In this document: positions 1 to 17,624 of the stretch, one piece after another
Layout of the letters: each line of letters opens with the position of its first letter
How positions within the stretch are numbered: the first letter of the stretch is position 1
From: Escherichia coli
GTDB taxonomy: Bacteria > Pseudomonadota > Gammaproteobacteria > Enterobacterales > Enterobacteriaceae
Assembly (NCBI RefSeq): GCF_024502345.1
Contig: NZ_JALDNN010000001.1
Length of the DNA stretch: 64,000 nucleotides
Strand: one strand, 5' to 3'
Position numbers and translations under genes: made by a program
The notes under the pieces: generated by a model
Databases searched by the model: none
What the model was told of the DNA's origin: nothing
What the model saw: only the letters and a program-made list of their open reading frames with translations

Positions 1-230
1 ACCAGCGTTTGTCGACCGCCGTTGAACTGGGGAAATGGCCCGATGGCGTTGCGTTGACCGAGGAACAAAAAGCGAACTGCCTGCAACTGGTGATGCTGTG
101 GCAAGCTCGCCATAATACCGAAGCACAGCATATGACAATTGACACAAATGGTCAGATGGTCATGAAGAGCAAACAGCAGTTAAAAGAAGATTTTGGTATC
201 TCAGCAAAGCCTATTGCTATGTTTAAGTGA
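1..230 (+). CDS. 3' portion of a small conserved protein (DUF1315 / YeaC-like); start lies upstream of the window
   Basis: Frame is open from the window edge to the stop at 228-230. Translation ...LSTAVELGKWPDGVALTEEQKANCLQLVMLWQARHN... resembles the small YeaC-type protein from memory; not verified. Confidence 0.5.
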   Translation, partial: QRLSTAVELGKWPDGVALTEEQKANCLQLVMLWQARHNTEAQHMTIDTNGQMVMKSKQQLKEDFGISAKPIAMFK

Positions 231-390
231 ATGAGTTATCTAGTATTTAAGCCTGTTATTAAGGGAGGGCAAATATACTTGTTAGGACGTCGTGTTTTAG
301 CTGCAAGTAGGTTAAATGCAACACTGACAAGTATTATCTGGCCTACAATGTCATTGAGGAAATGTAGGCCAGAGATGAATTCAACTAATA

Positions 391-1032
391 TTACCCCTGC
401 GTCTCTTCCCAGTCTGCCAGCGTATATAGCGTTGCCCCAGCTGCTGACATCTCCATAAACGCGTGCGCACTGTCCTGGGGCTGGATATTCACGCCACGAC
501 AACCATCGGTAATCACGTTTACCTTATAACCTAACTGTAACGCGTCCAGCACGGTAAACTTCACGCAATAGTCAGTAGCCAGGCCCATAACGATCAATTC
601 ATCGATTTCATGATCGCGTAACCAGTCATCGAGAGAGGTTTTCTGCCGACGGCCGTTATCAAAAAAGGCACTGTAACTGTCAACTAAAGGATTTTCGCCT
701 TTATGGAACACCGCTGCGATCGCTTTTTGGTTCAGTAACGGATGTAATTGTGCGCCTTCACTGTTCTGCACACAGTGATCTGGCCAGAAGGTTTGTGGCA
801 AACCGTCGAGTTGGCCTGGCGTATAAGGCTCTACACCGTGCTGACTGGCAAAACTGCCGTGATTCGCCGGGTGCCAGTCCTGACTGGCGATAACCGCTTC
901 ACCGCGCGACTGGCACCAGTCAATCAGGCGGTTAGCGACATCTACCGTACTGTCACCTTCCGGCACGGCGAGCGCGCCACCAGCACAGAAATCATTTTGT
1001 AAATCGACCAGTAACAGGGCGCGAGGGGGCAT
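391..1032 (-). CDS. pncA: nicotinamidase / pyrazinamidase
   Basis: 213-aa product MPPRALLLVDLQNDFCAGGALAV... (isochorismatase fold). Track ORF extends 6 codons upstream; start set at the conserved MPPRALL. Lies 8 nt downstream of ansA. Confidence 0.93.
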   Translation of the reverse strand: MPPRALLLVDLQNDFCAGGALAVPEGDSTVDVANRLIDWCQSRGEAVIASQDWHPANHGSFASQHGVEPYTPGQLDGLPQTFWPDHCVQNSEGAQLHPLLNQKAIAAVFHKGENPLVDSYSAFFDNGRRQKTSLDDWLRDHEIDELIVMGLATDYCVKFTVLDALQLGYKVNVITDGCRGVNIQPQDSAHAFMEMSAAGATLYTLADWEETQG

Positions 1033-1042
1033 TGCAGTCTCC

Positions 1043-2059
1043 TTAATCATCCGGCGTCAGTTCGCCGCGCAGGTTTTGGCTCATGGCCTTGCGAATGGTT
1101 TCAGTATCCAGTTCCTGGCTCAGCAGGTAATGCAGTTTGGTTAGCGTGGCTTCTACAGTCATATCTGCACCGCCAATAACGCCGGCATGGGCGAGGGCGT
1201 TACCGGTGGCATAACCACCCATATTCACTTTACCGGACATACATTGTGTCAGGTTGACCACCACAATACCGCGATCGCTGGCTTCTTGTAATTCCTGCAG
1301 GAAGGCTTTGTTTTGTGGCGCATTACCCACGCCATAGGAGCGCAGAATCAATGCTTTCACCGGTTGGCGCAGAAAATTGCGCACGACATCAGCAGAAATC
1401 CCCGGATAAATCGTCACTACGCCAATTGGTTGTGGCGTGATTGGATGAACGATTAATTCCCCTTCACCGTGCGGGGCGGGTGGCGTATTCAAACGACGAA
1501 TATGGATACCAGCTTCCAGTAACGGAGGAAGGTTTGGAGAGGCAAACGCATCAAAACCATCGGCATGGGCTTTGGTAGTGCGGTTGCCGCGATACAATCG
1601 GTTATTGAAAAAGAGCGTTACTTCGTTGATCGGATAATTCGCCGCAACGTACAACGCATTCAGCAGATTAATTTGTCCGTCAGAGCGTAACTCAGCCAGC
1701 GGGATTTGTGACCCTGTCACAATGACCGGTTTACCGAGATTCTCGAGCATGAACGACAGCGCAGAGGCGGTATACGCCATCGTGTCGGTACCGTGTAGAA
1801 TGACAAAACCATCATAGTCGTCATAGTGCGCTTTAATATCTTCAGCAATATGCTGCCAGTCTTCCGGCGTCATATCAGAAGAATCCATCAACGGCGTATA
1901 TTCATGAATGGTGAAATCTGGCATCTCCGGGCGATGGAATTCCGGCATCAGCGCCAGTTGGCGTTGTAGATGACCTGACACCGGAATATAACCCTGCTCG
2001 GAACGCTGCATCCCGATGGTCCCGCCCGTGTAGGCGACGTAAATTGATTTCTTTTGCAT
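1043..2059 (-). CDS. ansA: cytoplasmic L-asparaginase I
   Basis: 338-aa ORF MQKKSIYVAYTGGTIGM...HGTDTMAYTASALSFM..., the asparaginase signature. Confidence 0.95.
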   Translation of the reverse strand: MQKKSIYVAYTGGTIGMQRSEQGYIPVSGHLQRQLALMPEFHRPEMPDFTIHEYTPLMDSSDMTPEDWQHIAEDIKAHYDDYDGFVILHGTDTMAYTASALSFMLENLGKPVIVTGSQIPLAELRSDGQINLLNALYVAANYPINEVTLFFNNRLYRGNRTTKAHADGFDAFASPNLPPLLEAGIHIRRLNTPPAPHGEGELIVHPITPQPIGVVTIYPGISADVVRNFLRQPVKALILRSYGVGNAPQNKAFLQELQEASDRGIVVVNLTQCMSGKVNMGGYATGNALAHAGVIGGADMTVEATLTKLHYLLSQELDTETIRKAMSQNLRGELTPDD

Positions 2060-2225
2060 GATATTGATATGAATGATATCGAAAGAGCAAAAGTATATAC
2101 GTGAGGCAGGAGGAGCGCACCTGATACTATGCGGATAAGGAAATATGGGGCGAGACAGCGGGAAGAGGATTCGTCGAGGTAAAAAATAATGTGGCCGACG
2201 ATCTGTCGGCCACTCAGTACAAGAC

Positions 2226-4082
2226 TTAACGCACGTTGGCGCAGGTCAGGCAAAACGCATAACGGTTTTGTGGGTCGTTAAACGCGGCCAGCTTGTCGCT
2301 TTCACTTTTAACGGTAGAGGCTACCGAGGCAAGCGGTGCAGGTAATATGGCCTGGAACGCATCTGGCAAAATTGCCCGGACAGAACCAGACATGTTGTCC
2401 ATCACTTTGTCGAAGAAGGTCGGTTCATCAACGTAGTATTCCAGATGCCACTGTTTCACTTTTGCGAGCTCTGCTGCTTTGGCAACCGCATCATCGAAAT
2501 CCCCGAGACTATCGACCAGCCCGTTAGCTTTTGCATCCTGACCGGTCCAGACGTGGCCCTGGGCGATTTTATCAATTTGCTCCGGCGTCGAATGACGCGC
2601 ATCAGCAACCAGCGTGATAAAGCGTTTATAGCCATTCTCAATGCTTAATTGCATCATCTGCTGCGCTTCCGGCGGCAGTGCCCTGGTGATAGAAACATCC
2701 GCCAGCGGTGAAGTTGAGACACCATCAGTATGAACACCAATCGAATCCAGACTATTTTCTACGGTGGTGATCACGCCGAAGATACCGATAGAACCGGTCA
2801 GGGTGCTGGGGTTAGCCACAATGTAATTAGCTGGCGTGGAAATCCAGTAACCACCAGATGCCGCCATGCCGCCCATCGATACAACCACAGGCTTACCCGC
2901 TGCCCGGGCTGCTGCCAGTTCAGCGCGAATCACTTCAGACGCGGTAACGCTGCCGCCTGGGCTATTAACACGCAGGACAATCGCTTTCACTTTCGGGTCA
3001 AGGCGAGCGTCGCGGATTTGTGCCGCAGTGGTATCACCGCCAACATTCCCCTGAGTTTCCTCGCCATCCATAATTGCGCCATTAGCGAAGACGACACCGA
3101 TGCTGTCACCGGTATCTGCCGGCGTTTTCAATGCGTAATCGTAATAACTGATGGCGCGATAATTTTTATCAGTCTTACTCCAGCCGAACTCTTTGGTCAG
3201 AGCTTTTTCGATTTCGGCACTCGATGCCAGTGCATCGACCAGCTTGTTTTCCAGTGCATATTTCGCGGTATCGCCACCGGTTTTGGTTAAACCCTCAAGC
3301 AACCCTTGCGCGCCAGGGAATACCTGCTGAGCAGGGATCTGCCGGTTAGCGGCAACAGTATTCAGATAGTTTTGCCACAGCTCACCAATCCAGCGGCTGT
3401 CAGCTTCGCGGGCTGCCGGTGACATGTCATCACGAATAAACGGTTCAACGGCAGATTTATACGTACCCACGCGGAACACATGGGTGGAAACTTTCAGCTT
3501 ATCCAGCAACGATTTGTAGTACAGACCGTTGGTAGCAAAACCGTGCAAATCCACCACGCCTTGCGGTGACAGCCAAATTTTATTGGCGAAACTGGCGAGA
3601 TAATATTGCCCCTGGCTGTAGTTCTCGCCAACGGCATAAACCGGTTTCCCGCTGTCACGAAACTCTTTCAGGGCTTTGCCGATGTACTGCATAGACGGCT
3701 GGTCGCCGCCTGCGAAGTTTTTCAGATCCATCACGATACCGGTGATATTGCGGTCGTCCTTCGCCTGGCGAATGGTGTTGACGATATCAAACAGTGAGTT
3801 TTCCTGCAGACGATCGGAACTGGCACCAAGCAGCTGGCGGCTTAATTTACTAAACCGCTGAGAACTGTCGGGTTTATCGACGATCACACCAGAAATGTCC
3901 AGCAGCAGTGCGCCACGACTGGCCGTTTCTTTCGAATCACCACCACTGACCTGCATCCAGATCCCCACACCAACCAGTACGAGGAAAATAAAGAACAGGT
4001 TAAGTACCATTTCACGGACGAAATTCAGCAGACGCCACGTCCATTTAAAAAATCCGGCAATAAATCGCCAAAGGGTTCGCAT
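2226..4082 (-). CDS. sppA: signal peptide peptidase A (protease IV)
   Basis: 618-aa product starting [21 protein letters not shown]... with an N-terminal TM segment and tandem S49 peptidase domains. Track ORF extends 48 codons further upstream. Confidence 0.93.
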
Positions 4083-4242
4083 GTATTCTCCCAACTTAAG
4101 GTCACACCTGTCACAGGCGCAATAGATGTGGTTATCGTAATGACCCAACCGGCACTTGTCAGCAGGAATTGCGGACTGTGCTGTAACAAAATCCACTCTC
4201 GTGTTAATTTTGTGAATAAATCTCACGACAGGAGTTAATCAA

Positions 4243-4794
4243 ATGGATGCACTCGAACTATTGATCAATCGCCGTAGCGCCTCCCGCCTGGCTGAACCCG
4301 CACCAACGGGTGAACAACTGCAAAACATCCTGCGTGCGGGTATGCGCGCGCCGGACCATAAGTCCATGCAACCGTGGCATTTTTTTGTGATTGAAGGGGA
4401 AGGGCGCGAGCGTTTCAGCGCCGTACTGGAACAGGGGGCGATTGCTGCCGGTAGTGATGACAAAGCTATCGACAAAGCCCGTAATGCGCCGTTCCGCGCA
4501 CCGCTCATCATCACGGTGGTGGCGAAATGCGAAGAAAATCATAAAGTCCCGCGATGGGAACAGGAAATGTCTGCCGGATGCGCGGTCATGGCGATGCAAA
4601 TGGCAGCCGTTGCCCAGGGATTTGGCGGCATCTGGCGCAGTGGCGCATTAACTGAAAGTCCGGTAGTGCGTGAAGCATTCGGTTGCCGTGAGCAGGATAA
4701 AATTGTCGGTTTTCTCTACCTCGGCACGCCGCAGTTGAAAGCATCTACGTCGATTAACGTCCCGGACCCGACGCCGTTTGTAACTTATTTCTGA
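4243..4794 (+). CDS. ydjA: NAD(P)H nitroreductase family protein
   Basis: 183-aa [29 protein letters not shown]...; divergent from sppA. Confidence 0.9.
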
Positions 4795-4910
4795 TAATTG
4801 TCGCGAAACTGTCTGGATTGTGAGCAAAGGCGCAGGAATTCAGAGACTCTCACTTATCACTTCACGGAATGAGGGTTACCATACCCGGATTGCATTGACA
4901 GGAGATGTCC

Positions 4911-5954
4911 ATGAGCGAGAACTCGATTCGTTTGACCCAATACAGCCACGGAGCTGGTTGCGGCTGTAAAATTTCCCCAAAAGTGTTGGAAACCATCCTG
5001 CACAGTGAGCAGGCGAAGTTTGTTGATCCGAATTTGCTTGTGGGTAATGAAACCCGCGACGATGCGGCGGTGTACGATCTGGGCAATGGCACCAGCGTTA
5101 TCAGTACCACCGACTTCTTTATGCCGATCGTTGATAATCCTTTCGATTTTGGCCGCATTGCGGCGACTAACGCCATCAGCGATATCTTCGCGATGGGGGG
5201 CAAACCGATTATGGCGATTGCGATCCTCGGCTGGCCGATTAACAAACTTTCCCCAGAAATTGCCCGCGAAGTAACCGAAGGTGGACGCTATGCATGCCGT
5301 CAGGCGGGTATTGCGCTGGCTGGCGGTCACTCCATCGATGCGCCGGAGCCGATTTTTGGTCTGGCGGTAACGGGGATCGTACCGACCGAGCGGGTGAAGA
5401 AAAACAGTACCGCACAAGCCGGATGCAAACTGTTCCTGACGAAACCGCTGGGGATCGGCGTTCTTACCACGGCTGAGAAAAAATCACTGTTGAAACCAGA
5501 ACATCAGGGACTGGCGACGGAAGTGATGTGCCGGATGAACATCGCAGGTGCGTCCTTTGCCAACATCGAAGGCGTAAAAGCGATGACCGACGTTACTGGT
5601 TTTGGTCTGCTGGGCCATTTGAGCGAAATGTGTCAGGGCGCAGGTGTGCAGGCGCGCGTTGACTATGACGCGATCCCAAAATTGCCGGGGGTTGAAGAGT
5701 ACATTAAGTTGGGCGCAGTGCCTGGCGGCACCGAACGTAACTTTGCCAGCTACGGTCATCTGATGGGTGAAATGCCGCGTGAAGTGCGCGATTTGCTGTG
5801 CGATCCGCAAACTTCTGGCGGTTTGCTGCTGGCGGTCATGCCGGAAGCAGAAAATGAGGTTAAAGCTACAGCCGCCGAGTTTGGCATTGAACTGACGGCG
5901 ATTGGCGAACTGGTGCCAGCGCGCGGCGGTCGTGCCATGGTTGAGATCCGTTAA
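4911..5954 (+). CDS. selD: selenide, water dikinase (selenophosphate synthetase)
   Basis: 347-aa product [30 protein letters not shown]... (Cys17 form). Track start is 2 codons upstream. Confidence 0.95.
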
Positions 5955-5958
5955 TTCA

Positions 5959-7920
5959 ATGCGGTTGTTTATTGCCGAAAAACCGAGTCTGGCGCGCGCC
6001 ATTGCTGATGTCCTGCCCAAACCGCACCGTAAAGGCGATGGCTTTATCGAGTGCGGTAATGGTCAGGTGGTGACCTGGTGTATCGGTCACCTGCTTGAGC
6101 AGGCGCAGCCAGACGCCTACGACAGCCGCTATGCGCGCTGGAATCTTGCGGATTTGCCGATTGTCCCGGAAAAGTGGCAATTACAGCCCCGACCCTCCGT
6201 GATCAAACAACTTAACGTCATCAAACGGTACCTGCATGAAGCCAGCGAAATCGTTCACGCCGGGGACCCGGATCGCGAAGGGCAACTGCTGGTGGATGAA
6301 GTGCTGGACTATCTGCAACTGGCACCGGAAAAGCGCCAGCAGGTGCAGCGTTGCTTGATAAACGACCTGAACCCGCAGGCGGTTGAGCGGGCGATCGACC
6401 GTCTTCGTTCCAACAGTGAGTTTGTACCGCTGTGCGTTTCTGCGCTGGCGCGAGCGCGTGCCGACTGGCTGTACGGCATCAATATGACCCGTGCGTATAC
6501 TATTCTCGGTCGCAATGCCGGTTATCAGGGCGTGCTTTCCGTGGGACGCGTGCAGACACCCGTGCTCGGGCTGGTGGTGCGCCGCGATGAAGAGATTGAA
6601 AACTTCGTGGCGAAAGACTTCTTTGAAGTCAAAGCGCATATCGTGACACCTGCCGATGAGCGGTTTACCGCTATCTGGCAACCGAGCGAAGCGTGTGAAC
6701 CGTACCAGGATGAAGAAGGGCGCTTGTTACATCGTCCACTGGCGGAGCATGTGGTTAACCGCATTAGTGGTCAACCGGCTATTGTCACCAGCTATAACGA
6801 TAAACGGGAATCAGAATCCGCGCCGCTGCCTTTTTCGCTTTCGGCGTTGCAGATTGAAGCGGCAAAACGTTTTGGTCTGAGTGCGCAGAACGTGCTTGAT
6901 ATCTGTCAGAAACTGTACGAAACGCACAAGCTAATCACTTATCCGCGTTCTGATTGTCGCTATTTGCCAGAAGAACATTTTGCCGGACGCCACGCGGTGA
7001 TGAATGCCATCAGCGTTCATGCACCGGATCTGTTGCCACAGCCAGTGGTAGATCCAGATATACGCAACCGCTGTTGGGATGACAAAAAGGTCGATGCGCA
7101 CCACGCCATCATTCCGACCGCACGGAGTTCTGCGATCAACCTGACGGAGAACGAAGCGAAGGTCTATAACCTGATTGCCCGTCAGTACTTGATGCAGTTC
7201 TGCCCGGATGCGGTGTTCCGCAAGTGTGTTATCGAACTGGACATTGCCAAAGGCAAATTTGTCGCTAAAGCGCGTTTTCTTGCTGAAGCAGGTTGGCGCG
7301 CGCTGTTAGGCAGCAAAGAGCGCGATGAAGAAAACGACGGCACGCCATTGCCTGTGGTGGCGAAAGGCGATGAGTTGCTGTGTGAAAAAGGTGAAGTGGT
7401 AGAGCGGCAAACCCAGCCGCCGCGCCATTTTACCGATGCAACACTGCTTTCGGCGATGACCGGGATCGCGCGCTTTGTGCAGGACAAAGATCTGAAAAAG
7501 ATCCTTCGTGCGACCGATGGTCTGGGGACAGAAGCAACGCGTGCCGGGATTATTGAACTGTTGTTCAAGCGTGGTTTCCTCACCAAAAAAGGGCGCTATA
7601 TCCACTCCACCGACGCCGGAAAAGCGTTATTCCATTCGCTGCCAGAAATGGCTACGCGACCGGACATGACCGCGCACTGGGAATCGGTGCTGACGCAAAT
7701 CAGCGAAAAGCAGTGTCGCTATCAGGACTTTATGCAGCCGCTGGTGGGGACGCTATATCAGCTTATTGATCAAGCCAAACGTACTCCGGTGCGGCAGTTT
7801 CGCGGCATTGTGGCTCCGGGCAGTGGTGGCAGTGCTGATAAGAAAAAGGCTGCACCGCGTAAACGTAGTGCGAAAAAAAGTCCGCCAGCAGATGAAGCCG
7901 GAAGCGGGGCGATAGCGTAA
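5959..7920 (+). CDS. topB: DNA topoisomerase III
   Basis: 653-aa product [48 protein letters not shown]... with Toprim and topo-IA domains. Starts 5 nt after the selD stop. Confidence 0.95.
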
Positions 7921-8171
7921 GCGAGCGAATCTTTCGTGCTATTCGAGTTATATTCTGAAATATCCAGCGGATCAAGAAAATTCGTTGGATATTTTTTTTG
8001 CATGGATAAAATTATCGCCTCTAAAGTACGTAATAACAGGGAATGTGATGAAAAAAGTTTTATTACAAAACCATCCTGGGAGCGAGAAGTATTCTTTTAA
8101 TGGCTGGGAAATATTTAATAGTAATTTTGAACGGATGATTAAAGAAAATAAGGCCATGCTGCTTTGTAAGT

Positions 8172-8181
8172 GGGGGGGGGG
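8172..8181. repeat. homopolymeric G10 tract inside ynjI, site of the frameshift
   Basis: Ten consecutive G read directly. G8 or G11 would restore a continuous ynjI frame. Confidence 0.9.
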
Positions 8182-9006
8182 TATTTAACATGTGTTGTCG
8201 CTGTAATGTTTGTATTCGCAGCGATAACATCCAACGGTTTGAATGAAAGAGGCCTGATTACCGCGGGATGCTCATTTCTTTATCTATTAATTATGATGGG
8301 GCTTATTGTTCGGGCCGGTTTTAAAGCAAAAAAAGAACAGCTGCATTATTATCAGGCTAAAGGTATTGAGCCGCTCAGTATCGAGAAATTACAGGCGCTA
8401 CAATTGATCACACCTTATCGATTCTATCATAAGCAATGGTCTGAAACGCTGGAGTTCTGGCCGCGAAAGCCTGAACCTGGCAAAGATACCTTCCAATATC
8501 ATGTGCTTCCTTTTTACTCGATCGATATCATAAGTAAAAGACGCGAGTCTTTAGAGGATCAATGGGGTATCGAAGATAGCGAAAGTTATTGTGCCTTAAT
8601 GGAGCATTTTCTTTCTGGCGACCATGGAGCCAATACCTTTAAAGCAAACATGGAGGAAGCCCCAGAGCAGGTTATCGCCTTGTTGAATAAATTTGCTGTT
8701 TTTCCCTCTGACTATATCTCTGATTGCGCTAATCATAGCTCCGGTAAATCCTCGGCGAAGCTAATATGGGCGGCGGAATTATCATGGATGACCTCGATAT
8801 CAAGCACAGCTTTTCAAAACGGGACAATTGAAGAAGAACTGGCCTGGCATTATATAATGCTTGCTTCTCGAAAGGCGCACGAGTTGTTCGAAAGCGAAGA
8901 AGATTATCAAAAAAATAGTCTAATGGGATTTCTTTACTGGCATATCTGCTGCTATCGCAGAAAGTTAACGGATGCTGAACTTGAAGCGTGTTATCGTTAC
9001 GACAAG

Positions 9007-9014
9007 CAGTTTTG
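9007..9014. repeat. target-site duplication (left copy) of the IS1 insertion
   Basis: cagttttg immediately left of the IS1 GGTGATGCTGCC end, identical to 9783-9790. Possibly 9 bp depending on the G at the boundary. Confidence 0.8.
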
Positions 9015-9069
9015 GGTGATGCTGCCAACTTACTGATTTAGTGTATGATGGTGTTTTTGAGGTGCTCCA

Positions 9070-9345
9070 GTGGCTTCTGTTTCTATCAGCTGTCCCTCCT
9101 GTTCAGCTACTGACGGGGTGGTGCGTAACGGCAAAAGCACCGCCGGACATCAGCGCTATCTCTGCTCTCACTGCCGTAAAACATGGCAACTGCAGTTCAC
9201 TTACACCGCTTCTCAACCCGGTACGCACCAGAAAATCATTGATATGGCCATGAATGGCGTTGGATGCCGGGCAACCGCCCGAATTATGGGCGTTGGCCTC
9301 AACACGATTTTCCGCCATTTAAAAAACTCAGGCCGCAGTCGGTAA
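9070..9345 (+). CDS. insA: IS1 InsA (transposition repressor / N-terminal part of the transposase)
   Basis: 91-aa [43 protein letters not shown]... matches IS1 InsA. Confidence 0.95.
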
Positions 9346-9767
9346 CCTCGCGCATACAGCCGGGCAGTGACGTCATCGTCTGCGCGGAAATGGACGAACA
9401 GTGGGGATACGTCGGGGCTAAATCGCGCCAGCGCTGGCTGTTTTACGCGTATGACAGGCTCCGGAAGACGGTTGTTGCGCACGTATTCGGTGAACGCACT
9501 ATGGCGACGCTGGGGCGTCTTATGAGCCTGCTGTCACCCTTTGACGTGGTGATATGGATGACGGATGGCTGGCCGCTGTATGAATCCCGCCTGAAGGGAA
9601 AGCTGCACGTAATCAGCAAGCGATATACGCAGCGAATTGAGCGGCATAACCTGAATCTGAGGCAGCACCTGGCACGGCTGGGACGGAAGTCGCTGTCGTT
9701 CTCAAAATCGGTGGAGCTGCATGACAAAGTCATCGGGCATTATCTGAACATAAAACACTATCAATAA
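9264..9767 (+). CDS. insB: IS1 InsB reading frame (expressed as the InsAB' transposase by -1 frameshifting)
   Basis: ORF ...[21 protein letters not shown]...[39 protein letters not shown]...; the slippery TTAAAAAACTC motif lies at about 9318-9328. Confidence 0.92.
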
Positions 9768-9782
9768 GTTGGAGTCATTACC

Positions 9783-9790
9783 CAGTTTTG
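9783..9790. repeat. target-site duplication (right copy) of the IS1 insertion
   Basis: cagttttg directly after the IS1 right end. Confidence 0.8.
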
Positions 9791-9876
9791 GGAGCACTAC
9801 AGTAAGAAATGCCGTTGGCCCATAAGAAATGTTCCCTGGGGAGCATCATCCGTTAAATACTCATAAACGCCTGAAA

Positions 9877-9982: not shown

Positions 9983-11326
9983 TTAAATCACACCCTGCGC
10001 CAGCATCGCATCGGCAACCTTCACAAAACCGGCAATGTTCGCGCCCTGCACGTAGTTGGTTTGCTCACCTTCACCACCATGCTCAACACAGGCATGGTGG
10101 ATATCCAGCATGATGTGATGCAAACGTGCGTCAACTTTCTCGGCTTTCCAGCCCAGGCGCGCAGCGTTTTGCGCCATTTCAAGGCCTGACGTTGCTACAC
10201 CGCCAGCATTAGCCGCTTTACCCGGTGCAAACAGTACGCCTGCCTGCTGGAACAGTTCAGTCGCTTCGATGGTGGTCGGCATATTTGCCCCTTCGGCGAC
10301 GGCTTTAACGCCATTGGCGATAAGCTGATGCGCGGCGTCAACATCCAGTTCGTTCTGGGTAGCGCAAGGCAGGGCGATATCAACCGGTACAGACCACGGC
10401 TGTTGGCCTTCGAGATAGACCAGACCAAATTCTTTGGCGTAATCTGCCACTCGACCATCGCGGCTGGCTTTGATTTCGATAAGACGTGCCAGTTTCTCTT
10501 TCGTGAATCCGCTTTCATCAACTACAGTGCCGCTGGAGTCTGACGCAGTGATCACCCGAGCACCAAATTCCATCGCTTTTTCGATAGCGTACTGGGCGAC
10601 GTTGCCGGAGCCAGAAACGGAAACGCGCATCCCTTCAAAACCCATACCGTGGCGTTTTAGCATTGCTTCTGTGAAATAAACCAGACCGTAGCCGGTAGCT
10701 TCCGGGCGAATAAGACTGCCGCCAAATGAAAGGCCCTTACCGGTGAAGACGCAGGCGGTATTGTTGGAGAGCTTTTTCATCATCCCCGCCATAAAGCCGA
10801 CTTCACGACCACCAACCCCGATATCACCTGCCGGAACGTCGGTATCCGCGCCCAGGTGGCGATACAGTTCAGTCATCAGCGCCTGGCAAAAACGCATCAC
10901 TTCACCTTCGCTTTTTCCTTTTGGATCGAAATCGCTGCCGCCTTTACCACCGCCCATCGGCAGAGTAGTCAGGGCATTTTTGAAGGTTTGTTCGAAGCCG
11001 AGGAATTTAAGAATGGAGAGGTTAACTGACGGATGGAAACGCATACCGCCTTTGTACGGGCCGATGGCAGAGCTGAACTGCACACGCCATGCACGGTTGA
11101 CCTGTACCTGATTGCGATCATCAACCCATACCACGCGAAACTGGATCACGCGCTCCGGTTCAACCAGACGCTCCAGTAATGACATCTGGCGATATTTTGG
11201 ATTTTGTTCAAGAAAAGGCCAGAGTGTGGTCATTACTTCACGAACGGCTTGCGCGAACTCGGTTTGATTCGGGTCGCGCTTTTGGACATGGTTGAGGAAT
11301 GACTCCAGAGAATATGTCTGATCCAT
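9983..11326 (-). CDS. gdhA: NADP-specific glutamate dehydrogenase
   Basis: 447-aa MDQTYSLESFLNHVQKRDPNQTEFAQAVREV... with the GGGKGG motif. Confidence 0.96.
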   Translation of the reverse strand: MDQTYSLESFLNHVQKRDPNQTEFAQAVREVMTTLWPFLEQNPKYRQMSLLERLVEPERVIQFRVVWVDDRNQVQVNRAWRVQFSSAIGPYKGGMRFHPSVNLSILKFLGFEQTFKNALTTLPMGGGKGGSDFDPKGKSEGEVMRFCQALMTELYRHLGADTDVPAGDIGVGGREVGFMAGMMKKLSNNTACVFTGKGLSFGGSLIRPEATGYGLVYFTEAMLKRHGMGFEGMRVSVSGSGNVAQYAIEKAMEFGARVITASDSSGTVVDESGFTKEKLARLIEIKASRDGRVADYAKEFGLVYLEGQQPWSVPVDIALPCATQNELDVDAAHQLIANGVKAVAEGANMPTTIEATELFQQAGVLFAPGKAANAGGVATSGLEMAQNAARLGWKAEKVDARLHHIMLDIHHACVEHGGEGEQTNYVQGANIAGFVKVADAMLAQGVI

Positions 11327-16485: not shown

Positions 16486-17624
16486 TCTTGTTCCAGCGCA
16501 TTTACCCAACCTGCGTGCGGTTCAGCCAGTACCGGCGGCAGATCTTGCGGCATTCTTGATTGCAATGTTTCGCGCTGCCCATCAGGCAGTTTTTGCGGAT
16601 CGAGAACAGAAGGATCGCCCCAGACAGCGGGATCTGCTTTACGCAATTGCGCATCGGGTGAGAGCAAGAAATTGGCAACTACCTTCGCCGCAGCACTGGC
16701 ATTCGCGTTGGCAGGAATGGTGACGAAATGCACGTTGCCAATCGTCCCCTCGCGAAAGCCAAAACTGTAACTGCTTGCAGGCAAATCGCCGCTGGCGATT
16801 TTTTGCTGCGCATGCGCGGGGTTAAAGGTCAGCGACAGGCGCAATGTGCCGGCTTTCAGCAGAGCATCCATCCGCGCGGGCGAAGGCGGGAAATCCTTTC
16901 CTTCGCGCCACAAATACGGATGCAGCGCATCAAGATATTGCCACAAGGGAGCAGTGACGCGGGCGAAAGTCGCATCGTCCGGCGCTTCTTTTAATGCGGC
17001 GGGATCGGCCGTCAGCATAATCAGCAACTGTTCAAGAAACGCCGTGCCGGTAAAGTCCGGTGGGCGCGGATAGGTAACCGTGCCGGGATTGGCTTTAGCA
17101 AACTCCAGTAAGGCTTGCGGCGTTTGTGGTGGCTGTGGCGTAACATCGCGGCGGGCGATAAATGTCAGTTGTGCGCCCCCCCAGGGCGATTCAGCCCCTT
17201 CTGTAGGCACTGAAAAATCTTCCCGCACCGGCAGCTGTGTGTCGACATAGCGCCAGTTGGGCAGAGTCTCTGCCCAGTCGGTTTGCAGTAAATTGGCCTC
17301 TTTTAAGGTGCGGAAGTTTTCGCCGTTCACCCAGAGTAGATCCACCGAGCCGCCCGTTTTACGTCCGGCTGCGGCTTCGGTCTGAATGCGCTTCACCGCG
17401 TCTGCGGCATCCGCCAGACGGACAATCTTCAGGTTTATAGCGTAATGGGTTTTCATCTCGCCGCTCACCCAGTCGAGATAGCGGTTAATTGCGGTATCGC
17501 CGCCCCAGGCGTTAAACCAGACGGTTTGCCCTTTGGCCTCATTTTTAATTTCTTGCCAGTCACTGGCATATGTTGCCAGAGAAAACAGCGATAACAATCC
17601 CAGCAACCACCCACAATGGCGCAT
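16458..17624 (-). CDS. ynjB: ABC transporter periplasmic substrate-binding protein
   Basis: 388-aa product with a signal peptide (MRHCGWLLGLLSLFSLATYA); overlaps the ynjC start. Confidence 0.88.
   Translation of the reverse strand: MRHCGWLLGLLSLFSLATYASDWQEIKNEAKGQTVWFNAWGGDTAINRYLDWVSGEMKTHYAINLKIVRLADAADAVKRIQTEAAAGRKTGGSVDLLWVNGENFRTLKEANLLQTDWAETLPNWRYVDTQLPVREDFSVPTEGAESPWGGAQLTFIARRDVTPQPPQTPQALLEFAKANPGTVTYPRPPDFTGTAFLEQLLIMLTADPAALKEAPDDATFARVTAPLWQYLDALHPYLWREGKDFPPSPARMDALLKAGTLRLSLTFNPAHAQQKIASGDLPASSYSFGFREGTIGNVHFVTIPANANASAAAKVVANFLLSPDAQLRKADPAVWGDPSVLDPQKLPDGQRETLQSRMPQDLPPVLAEPHAGWVNALEQEWLHRYGTH

Follow-up and report, generated by a model that had tools for sequence, protein, structure and literature searches.

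The window analysed here is a contiguous 64-kb stretch of E. coli DNA, in which ynjI lies between topB and gdhA, as in other E. coli (Table 1). The ynjI sequence of the window is 98.8-99.0% identical to the ynjI genes of complete E. coli genomes, and its orthologues are named 'DUF1266 domain-containing protein' in RefSeq. Intact orthologues of 346 or 347 aa are present in K-12, S19-651, and GF3-3. The repaired 347-aa YnjI of the window matches the Pfam family DUF1266 (PF06889) over residues 168-339 (E = 1.7e-25), which covers the full model (1-175). A terminator-like hairpin with a T run was observed at 7957-7995, directly after topB and upstream of the ynjI start. A search for sigma-70 consensus matches around the tract (7850-8350) gave none.

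Table 1. Features of the ynjI locus and its neighbours, in window coordinates.
Feature	Position	Strand	Basis
topB (DNA topoisomerase III), upstream neighbour	5959..7920	+	ORF end at 7920; RefSeq annotation of homologous loci; start approximate, derived from the homologue length of 653 aa
ynjI 5' fragment, 46 codons, MKKVLL...MLLCKWGGGI	8048..8188	+	ATG at 8048, TAA at 8186-8188
G10 homopolymer, codons 42-45 of ynjI	8172..8181	+	Sequence; G6-G12 at the same position elsewhere
ynjI remainder, shifted frame, up to the IS1 junction	8182..9014	+	ORF list, sequence comparison
IS1, 768 bp	9015..9782	+	Sequence; insA/insB-like ORFs
ynjI displaced last 74 bp (...EHYSKKCRWPIRNVPWGASSVKYS, stop)	9792..9865	+	Split off from the gene by IS1
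gdhA (NADP-glutamate dehydrogenase), downstream convergent neighbour	9983..11326	-	ORFs; RefSeq annotation of homologous loci

The initial annotation had described a change of the ynjI reading frame across a run of ten G, and this was confirmed. Direct reading and a pattern search both gave exactly ten G, in the context ...TGC TTT GTA AGT GGGGGGGGGG TAT TTA ACA.... Because the run shifts the frame, translation meets a premature TAA after 46 codons, and the rest of the gene (YLTCVVAVMFVF...) is read in another frame as the ORF 8170-9036. Setting the tract to G8 yields a single continuous ynjI frame, and the G11 alleles of other genomes encode one full-length protein. The lengths G8 and G11 are thus in frame (346 and 347 aa), while G6, G7, G9, G10, and G12 lead to products of 45-66 aa. 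At the out-of-frame lengths, translation ends upstream of the first membrane helix; two predicted membrane helices and the greater part of the DUF1266 domain are encoded between the tract and the IS1 junction. It had also been proposed that G8 or G11 would give one continuous ORF. The two frames do join at these lengths, but in this genome the joined frame ends early, at 9034-9036 inside IS1, with a product of 328 or 329 aa.

G10 is the only G/C run of at least 8 bases found by a homopolymer scan of the 64-kb window, and the second-longest is a C7 at 17176-17182. A search for G8 returned three overlapping matches, all of them within G10. At least three such matches were also obtained in 15 of 100 dinucleotide-preserving shuffles of the window, and the occurrence of G10 by chance alone is not very improbable. 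The significance of the tract comes from comparison with other genomes and not from run statistics.

The second lesion, which the initial annotation overlooked, is the IS1 insertion. The element begins with GGTGATGCTGCCAACTTACTG..., and a 9-bp target duplication, CAGTTTTGG, borders it at 9007-9015 on one side and at 9783-9791 on the other. The insertion point is 74 bp upstream of the native ynjI stop codon, and the last 24 codons have been replaced by IS1 sequence, giving a fusion tail of ...DKQFW-VMLPTY that terminates at 9034-9036. When IS1 and one copy of the duplication were removed and the tract was normalised, a frame of 346 codons with the layout of K-12 ynjI was recovered. The cut falls at approximately residue 323, inside the DUF1266 match; therefore, the end of the domain is lost. 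Only one copy of this IS is present in the 64-kb window. The ynjI gene of the window is most plausibly a pseudogene that was disrupted twice independently, by the poly-G frameshift and by IS1, and in the annotation of this genome it should be described as one pseudogene with two lesions and not as two genes. Because of the second lesion, a return of the tract to G11 would not restore a normal YnjI. The IS1 lesion is effectively irreversible and separate from the tract mechanism.

Apart from IS1, the window is collinear with the genome of E. coli GF3-3 over 49.6 kb. The nucleotide identity to GF3-3 falls from approximately 98.9% to 95.7% from 48771 onward. In this region, a 544-aa ORF (48736-50370, minus strand) corresponds in position to espL1 of GF3-3, a type III effector gene of 1,899 bp (632 aa), and it may be a shortened or divergent espL1.

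The tract length was counted in 5,426 complete E. coli genomes by BLAST queries that combined each tract length with 35-bp exact flanks. The band of identity '>=99%' was inflated because a divergent allele contributed 16-20 partial 100% hits to every query; coverage figures were used to correct the counts, which were checked against the listed rows for G7 (36), G11 (11), G6 (28), and G7T2 (12). The ynjI region is present in approximately 3,480-3,510 of these genomes, and about 35% have no ynjI match. The K-12-type sequence TGGGGGTTTTAT, AAG TGG GGG TTT TAT (G5T4, K-W-G-F-Y), is found in approximately 2,480 of the 5,426 genomes; this non-mutable form accounts for about 70% of the ynjI carriers. 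The derived pure tract, AAG TGG (G)n TAT, is present in approximately 985 genomes, or about 28% of the carriers. The exact counts, which refer to phylogenetically non-independent genomes, are 28 for G6, 36 for G7, 444 for G8, 169 for G9, 88 for G10, 11 for G11, and 3 for G12. Among these exactly counted genomes, the tract is in frame in 455 (58%) and out of frame in 324 (42%). The alleles with G9, G10, and G12 are annotated as 'frameshifted' pseudogenes by RefSeq. The fragments of YnjI in S. sonnei and S. dysenteriae are of the K-12-type WGFY.

Truncated products are also on record in an independent assembly collection, which consists of draft genomes, metagenomes, and re-assembled read sets. 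The numbers of collection blocks are 3,783 for the G7 product, 18,301 for G9, 6,282 for G10, and 352 for G12. One full-length haplotype is recorded with G8 in 18,204 blocks and with G11 in 947. At one locus (L048, GCA_000163155.1), a 45-aa OFF peptide identical to that of G7 was observed that results from G8 with loss of the following T (GGGGGGGG-ATTTAAC).

The K-12-type G5T4 sequence is also retained in a divergent ynjI allele with approximately 90% identity (L011), and G5T4 is therefore taken as the ancestral state. From this state, TGG GGG TTT TAT (W-G-F-Y, as in K-12) would have been converted into TGG GGG GGG TAT (W-G-G-Y, G8) by three T-to-G substitutions adjoining the G5 run on its 3' side, replacing Phe (TTT) by Gly (GGG). 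An in-frame intermediate, G7T2, with the sequence TGGGGGGGTTAT (TGGGGGGG-TT-AT; W-G-G-Y), is present with an intact gene in 12 complete genomes (compare loci L007, L072, and L073), while a G6T3 intermediate was found in none of the complete E. coli genomes. We infer that the run grew stepwise by border substitutions, from G5TTT through G7TT to G8. Substitutions at the border that extend a run are expected from transient misalignment. From G8 on, insertions and deletions would dominate, with repeated expansion and contraction in many E. coli lineages, and these length changes would arise by slipped-strand mispairing during replication. Indel rates in E. coli climb exponentially with homopolymer length, and G:C runs of 8 bp are already outliers in K-12 (PMC8510543).

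The variation in length is reproducible among related genomes. STEC306, STEC307, and STEC308 all have G7; 94-3024 and CFSAN002236 both have G9, as do JE86-ST02 and JE86-ST05; AR436 and AR_0374 both have G10; and strain T28R, which was sequenced twice, gave G6 each time. Early finished genomes also carry out-of-frame tracts, G10 in SE11 and G9 in O103:H2 12009, and we take both of these genomes to be Sanger-finished. Since clonal isolates and re-sequenced strains agree in length, the variation is not mainly sequencing error. At the same time, the tract length is not fixed within a haplotype. One identical tract-normalised haplotype of 346 aa was seen with G7, G9, G10, G11, and G12, and a second one with G9, G10, and G12.

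An alignment of 48 loci (4,793 ungapped columns, 199 variable sites) contains 18 pairs that differ by at most one SNP over 4.8 kb, yet have unequal tract lengths. Pairs without a single SNP include L014 (G10) and L069 (G11), L034 (G9) and L049 (G7), and L038 (G9) and L053 (G12), and this comparison is independent of any tree. Parsimony on a neighbour-joining tree of the 48 loci required a minimum of 30 length changes, 48 single-base steps, and 12 switches between in-frame and out-of-frame states, in a sample that was stratified by tract length and with counts that recombination can inflate. The tract length thus varies faster than the flanking point substitutions among close relatives. The view in the initial annotation that such G runs are prone to slippage is borne out by the range of G6-G12 among near-identical alleles, including those of the window's own IS1-bearing lineage; relatives with an invariant G10, which it had held out as evidence to the contrary, were not what the comparison returned.

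This lineage was traced by exact look-ups of the IS1-fused products, which identified 30 contigs with the ynjI::IS1 junction of the window. The contigs differ from the window by 1-3 SNPs over 3.8 kb, and their labels are E. coli or human gut metagenome. In the contigs that were returned as sequence, the tract is G10 in three (L022, L025, L027), G9 in two (L023, L026), G12 in one (L024), and G11 in four (L028-L031). The in-frame G11 is present in 10 contigs of the lineage, and its IS1-fused product is recorded as WP_306422446.1, labelled E. coli. An exact-protein look-up for the in-frame G8 version of the IS1-fused YnjI found none on record. G10 is thus independently attested in this lineage by three assemblies. 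The tract appears to have kept changing within the lineage that shares IS1, a behaviour expected of a slippage-prone tract whose gene is no longer functional. When the segment 11400-36000 of the window was compared with the 5,426 complete E. coli genomes, the best identity was only 98.8% over 24.6 kb, and the lineage does not appear to be represented among them. This low identity and the presence of IS1 had raised the suspicion of a Shigella origin, which was rejected in view of the single IS copy, the collinearity with GF3-3, the K-12-type WGFY in the S. sonnei and S. dysenteriae fragments, and the E. coli label of WP_306422446.1.

These contigs bear on the question of whether the G10 of the window is itself an error of sequencing or assembly, in which case the real length would be G11 (or G8) and the frame would stay open as far as IS1. 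Several sequencing platforms make errors in long runs of G, and the ten G11 contigs with the same IS1 junction would fit such an error. However, the three assemblies with both G10 and this junction were obtained independently, the 88 complete genomes with G10 include consistent clonal pairs and SE11, and the 46-aa product of G10 is recorded in the 6,282 collection blocks given above. An error in the window is therefore considered decidedly unlikely. Even if G11 were the true length, ynjI would still be truncated by IS1.

The frameshift could also be bypassed at expression by RNA polymerase slippage, by -1 ribosomal slippage, or by re-initiation at the ATG at 8206, so that G10 would be a leaky allele and not a null allele. 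A pure G run allows Gly-tRNAs to re-pair without mismatch after a -1 shift. The ATG at 8206 is located 18 nt past the premature stop and is chosen by gene callers. On the other hand, the RNA fold downstream of the tract is non-significant (z = -1.44), and no match to an Rfam frameshift or other RNA element was found at or after the tract on either strand. No Shine-Dalgarno sequence is visible upstream of this ATG, which is placed inside the first membrane helix. Transcriptional slippage on homopolymers is established for A/T runs; to our knowledge, efficient slippage of this kind has been documented for A/T runs and not for G runs. In addition, the C-terminus is removed by IS1 in any case. Bypass of the frameshift thus seems very improbable.

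Taken together, it is highly probable that the poly-G tract of ynjI is hypermutable by nature, with G10 as one of its states, and that the gene in the window is a doubly disrupted pseudogene. The tract in the window has an OFF length, IS1 has independently cut away the end of the DUF1266 domain, and the tract is most likely now drifting neutrally.

The initial annotation had suggested a phase-variable switch as one possibility, and the mechanical part of this suggestion is supported. The tract is a slippage hot spot that resembles a contingency tract in its mechanics, with lengths that switch the frame. Selection for the switching itself is a separate matter. If the tract were a selected contingency switch, G10 would be the OFF state, from which a single +1 slippage would lead to ON (G11). 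Several observations are compatible with such a switch. The poly-G run of at least 8 bases is close to the start of the coding sequence for a membrane protein, and ON and OFF lengths occur on identical haplotypes, with the frame switches counted above among the 48 loci. G11 is found at five separate places of the tree beside relatives with G7, G8, G9, G10, or G12; therefore, the frame has probably been regained several times, if single-base steps dominate. In the lineage of the window itself, both G10 and G11 are present. The promoter of ynjI is regulated: BglJ-RcsB activates it, and H-NS/StpA repress it in part (PMC3950696). The counts peak sharply at G8, with G7 and G6 scarce, and selection in favour of in-frame alleles could contribute to this pattern in addition to ancestry. 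Among 32 OFF alleles fetched via an N-terminal peptide, 28-29 (approximately 90%) are otherwise intact, and dN/dS between ynjI alleles is 0.08-0.46, based on very few substitutions. Because the OFF alleles are mostly intact and dN/dS is below 1, simple decay does not describe ynjI everywhere, and a reversible switch under selection is conceivable.

However, the distribution of lengths does not have the form that selection for switching would suggest. The counts drop steadily from G8 to G12 without a bump at the in-frame G11, which is not enriched over its OFF neighbours: G10, G11, and G12 are present in 88, 11, and 3 genomes, and geometric interpolation gives approximately 16. The share of complete genomes that have no ynjI match and the predominance of the non-mutable G5T4 among the carriers also speak against a selected switch. 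Clonal isolates and re-sequenced strains have the same length, which argues against very high rates of switching. Literature on YnjI describes the regulation of its promoter only, and gives no function or phenotype (PMC3950696).

Irreversible lesions, namely stop codons, second frameshifts, and IS1, have accumulated in in-frame and out-of-frame alleles alike, which is a further argument against a selected switch. One G8 allele has a stop at codon 118 (L002), and a G8 and a G7 allele have a second frameshift in common (L003 and L005). A stop at codon 246 is common to a G6 and a G7 allele (L009 and L043), and two other loci contain further ynjI lesions (L016 and L042). Strain 100416 (hit H26) combines a G7 tract with an IS1 in ynjI at a different site from that of the window. 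In the window, IS1 makes switching moot. Two observations may be added on these loci. The codon-246 stop is also present in a G5T4 allele (L008), and its distribution suggests either intragenic recombination or a nonsense allele older than the changes in the tract. In L060, a transposase of the IS110 family lies between ynjI and gdhA (4228-5208).

On balance, a selected contingency switch is unlikely, and we are equally doubtful that stochastic ON/OFF expression of YnjI benefits the G-tract lineages, for example against phage or host factors. The preferred reading remains that of a hypermutable tract, which in the disrupted ynjI of the window is most likely drifting neutrally.

The locus can be regarded as a clean natural case in which a coding homopolymer was probably born and then became a recurrent frameshift hot spot in E. 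coli. Thousands of draft assemblies hold truncated ynjI products. This affects pan-genome and pseudogene counts and the frameshift flags of annotation pipelines, as well as typing or association studies that use the presence or integrity of ynjI as a stable character. There is a small chance that the poly-G of ynjI is a genuine slipped-strand phase-variation locus under selection, in an E. coli lineage that is proficient in mismatch repair, and that it is being observed shortly after it arose from G5TTT. If so, it would represent a chromosomal contingency gene in a species that is usually said to lack homopolymer-based phase variation, and it would offer a handle on the function of DUF1266 membrane proteins.

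The ynjI tract can be compared with the contingency loci of Neisseria, Campylobacter jejuni, Helicobacter pylori, and Bordetella pertussis, such as the poly-G of gonococcal pgtA (PMC2193922) and the homopolymeric tracts of B. pertussis (PMC1891110); homopolymeric tracts in general have also been surveyed (PMC2831843). As in these loci, a poly-G/C run of at least 8 bases is located in the 5' part of the coding sequence, one-base changes flip the frame between ON and OFF, and lengths differ between very close isolates. However, those organisms possess many tracts with measured switching rates and phenotypes, whereas E. coli has few long G/C runs (PMC8510543). In addition, the ynjI tract is recent, is limited to about 28% of the ynjI-carrying complete genomes, is not enriched at G11, and co-occurs with irreversible lesions.

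A closer parallel in some respects is the 7C tract of glpK in Mycobacterium tuberculosis (bioRxiv 10.1101/717272). In that species, which has no classical phasome, one homopolymer within a coding sequence is likewise involved, and frameshifted as well as restored alleles circulate in natural isolates. Unlike ynjI, glpK confers a selectable phenotype (drug tolerance and small colonies), and its reversion in culture has been demonstrated (bioRxiv 10.1101/717272).

In the literature on ynjI and on homopolymer phase variation in E. coli, we found no description of this tract, and the name ynjI is absent from the main text of a survey of homopolymers in 1,346 Escherichia assemblies (PMC8928963). 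The length distribution and its recurrence on identical haplotypes are thus apparently undescribed, as far as we could find. According to that survey, longer tracts are over-represented in pseudogenes, and the tracts of conserved genes are mostly 6-8 bases long (PMC8928963). The 'frameshifted' G9, G10, and G12 alleles of ynjI resemble the homopolymer-associated Escherichia pseudogenes described there. The second lesion of the window has familiar counterparts as well: as in other gene disruptions by IS1 in E. coli and Shigella, an element of 768 bp is flanked by a 9-bp target duplication and truncates the coding sequence.
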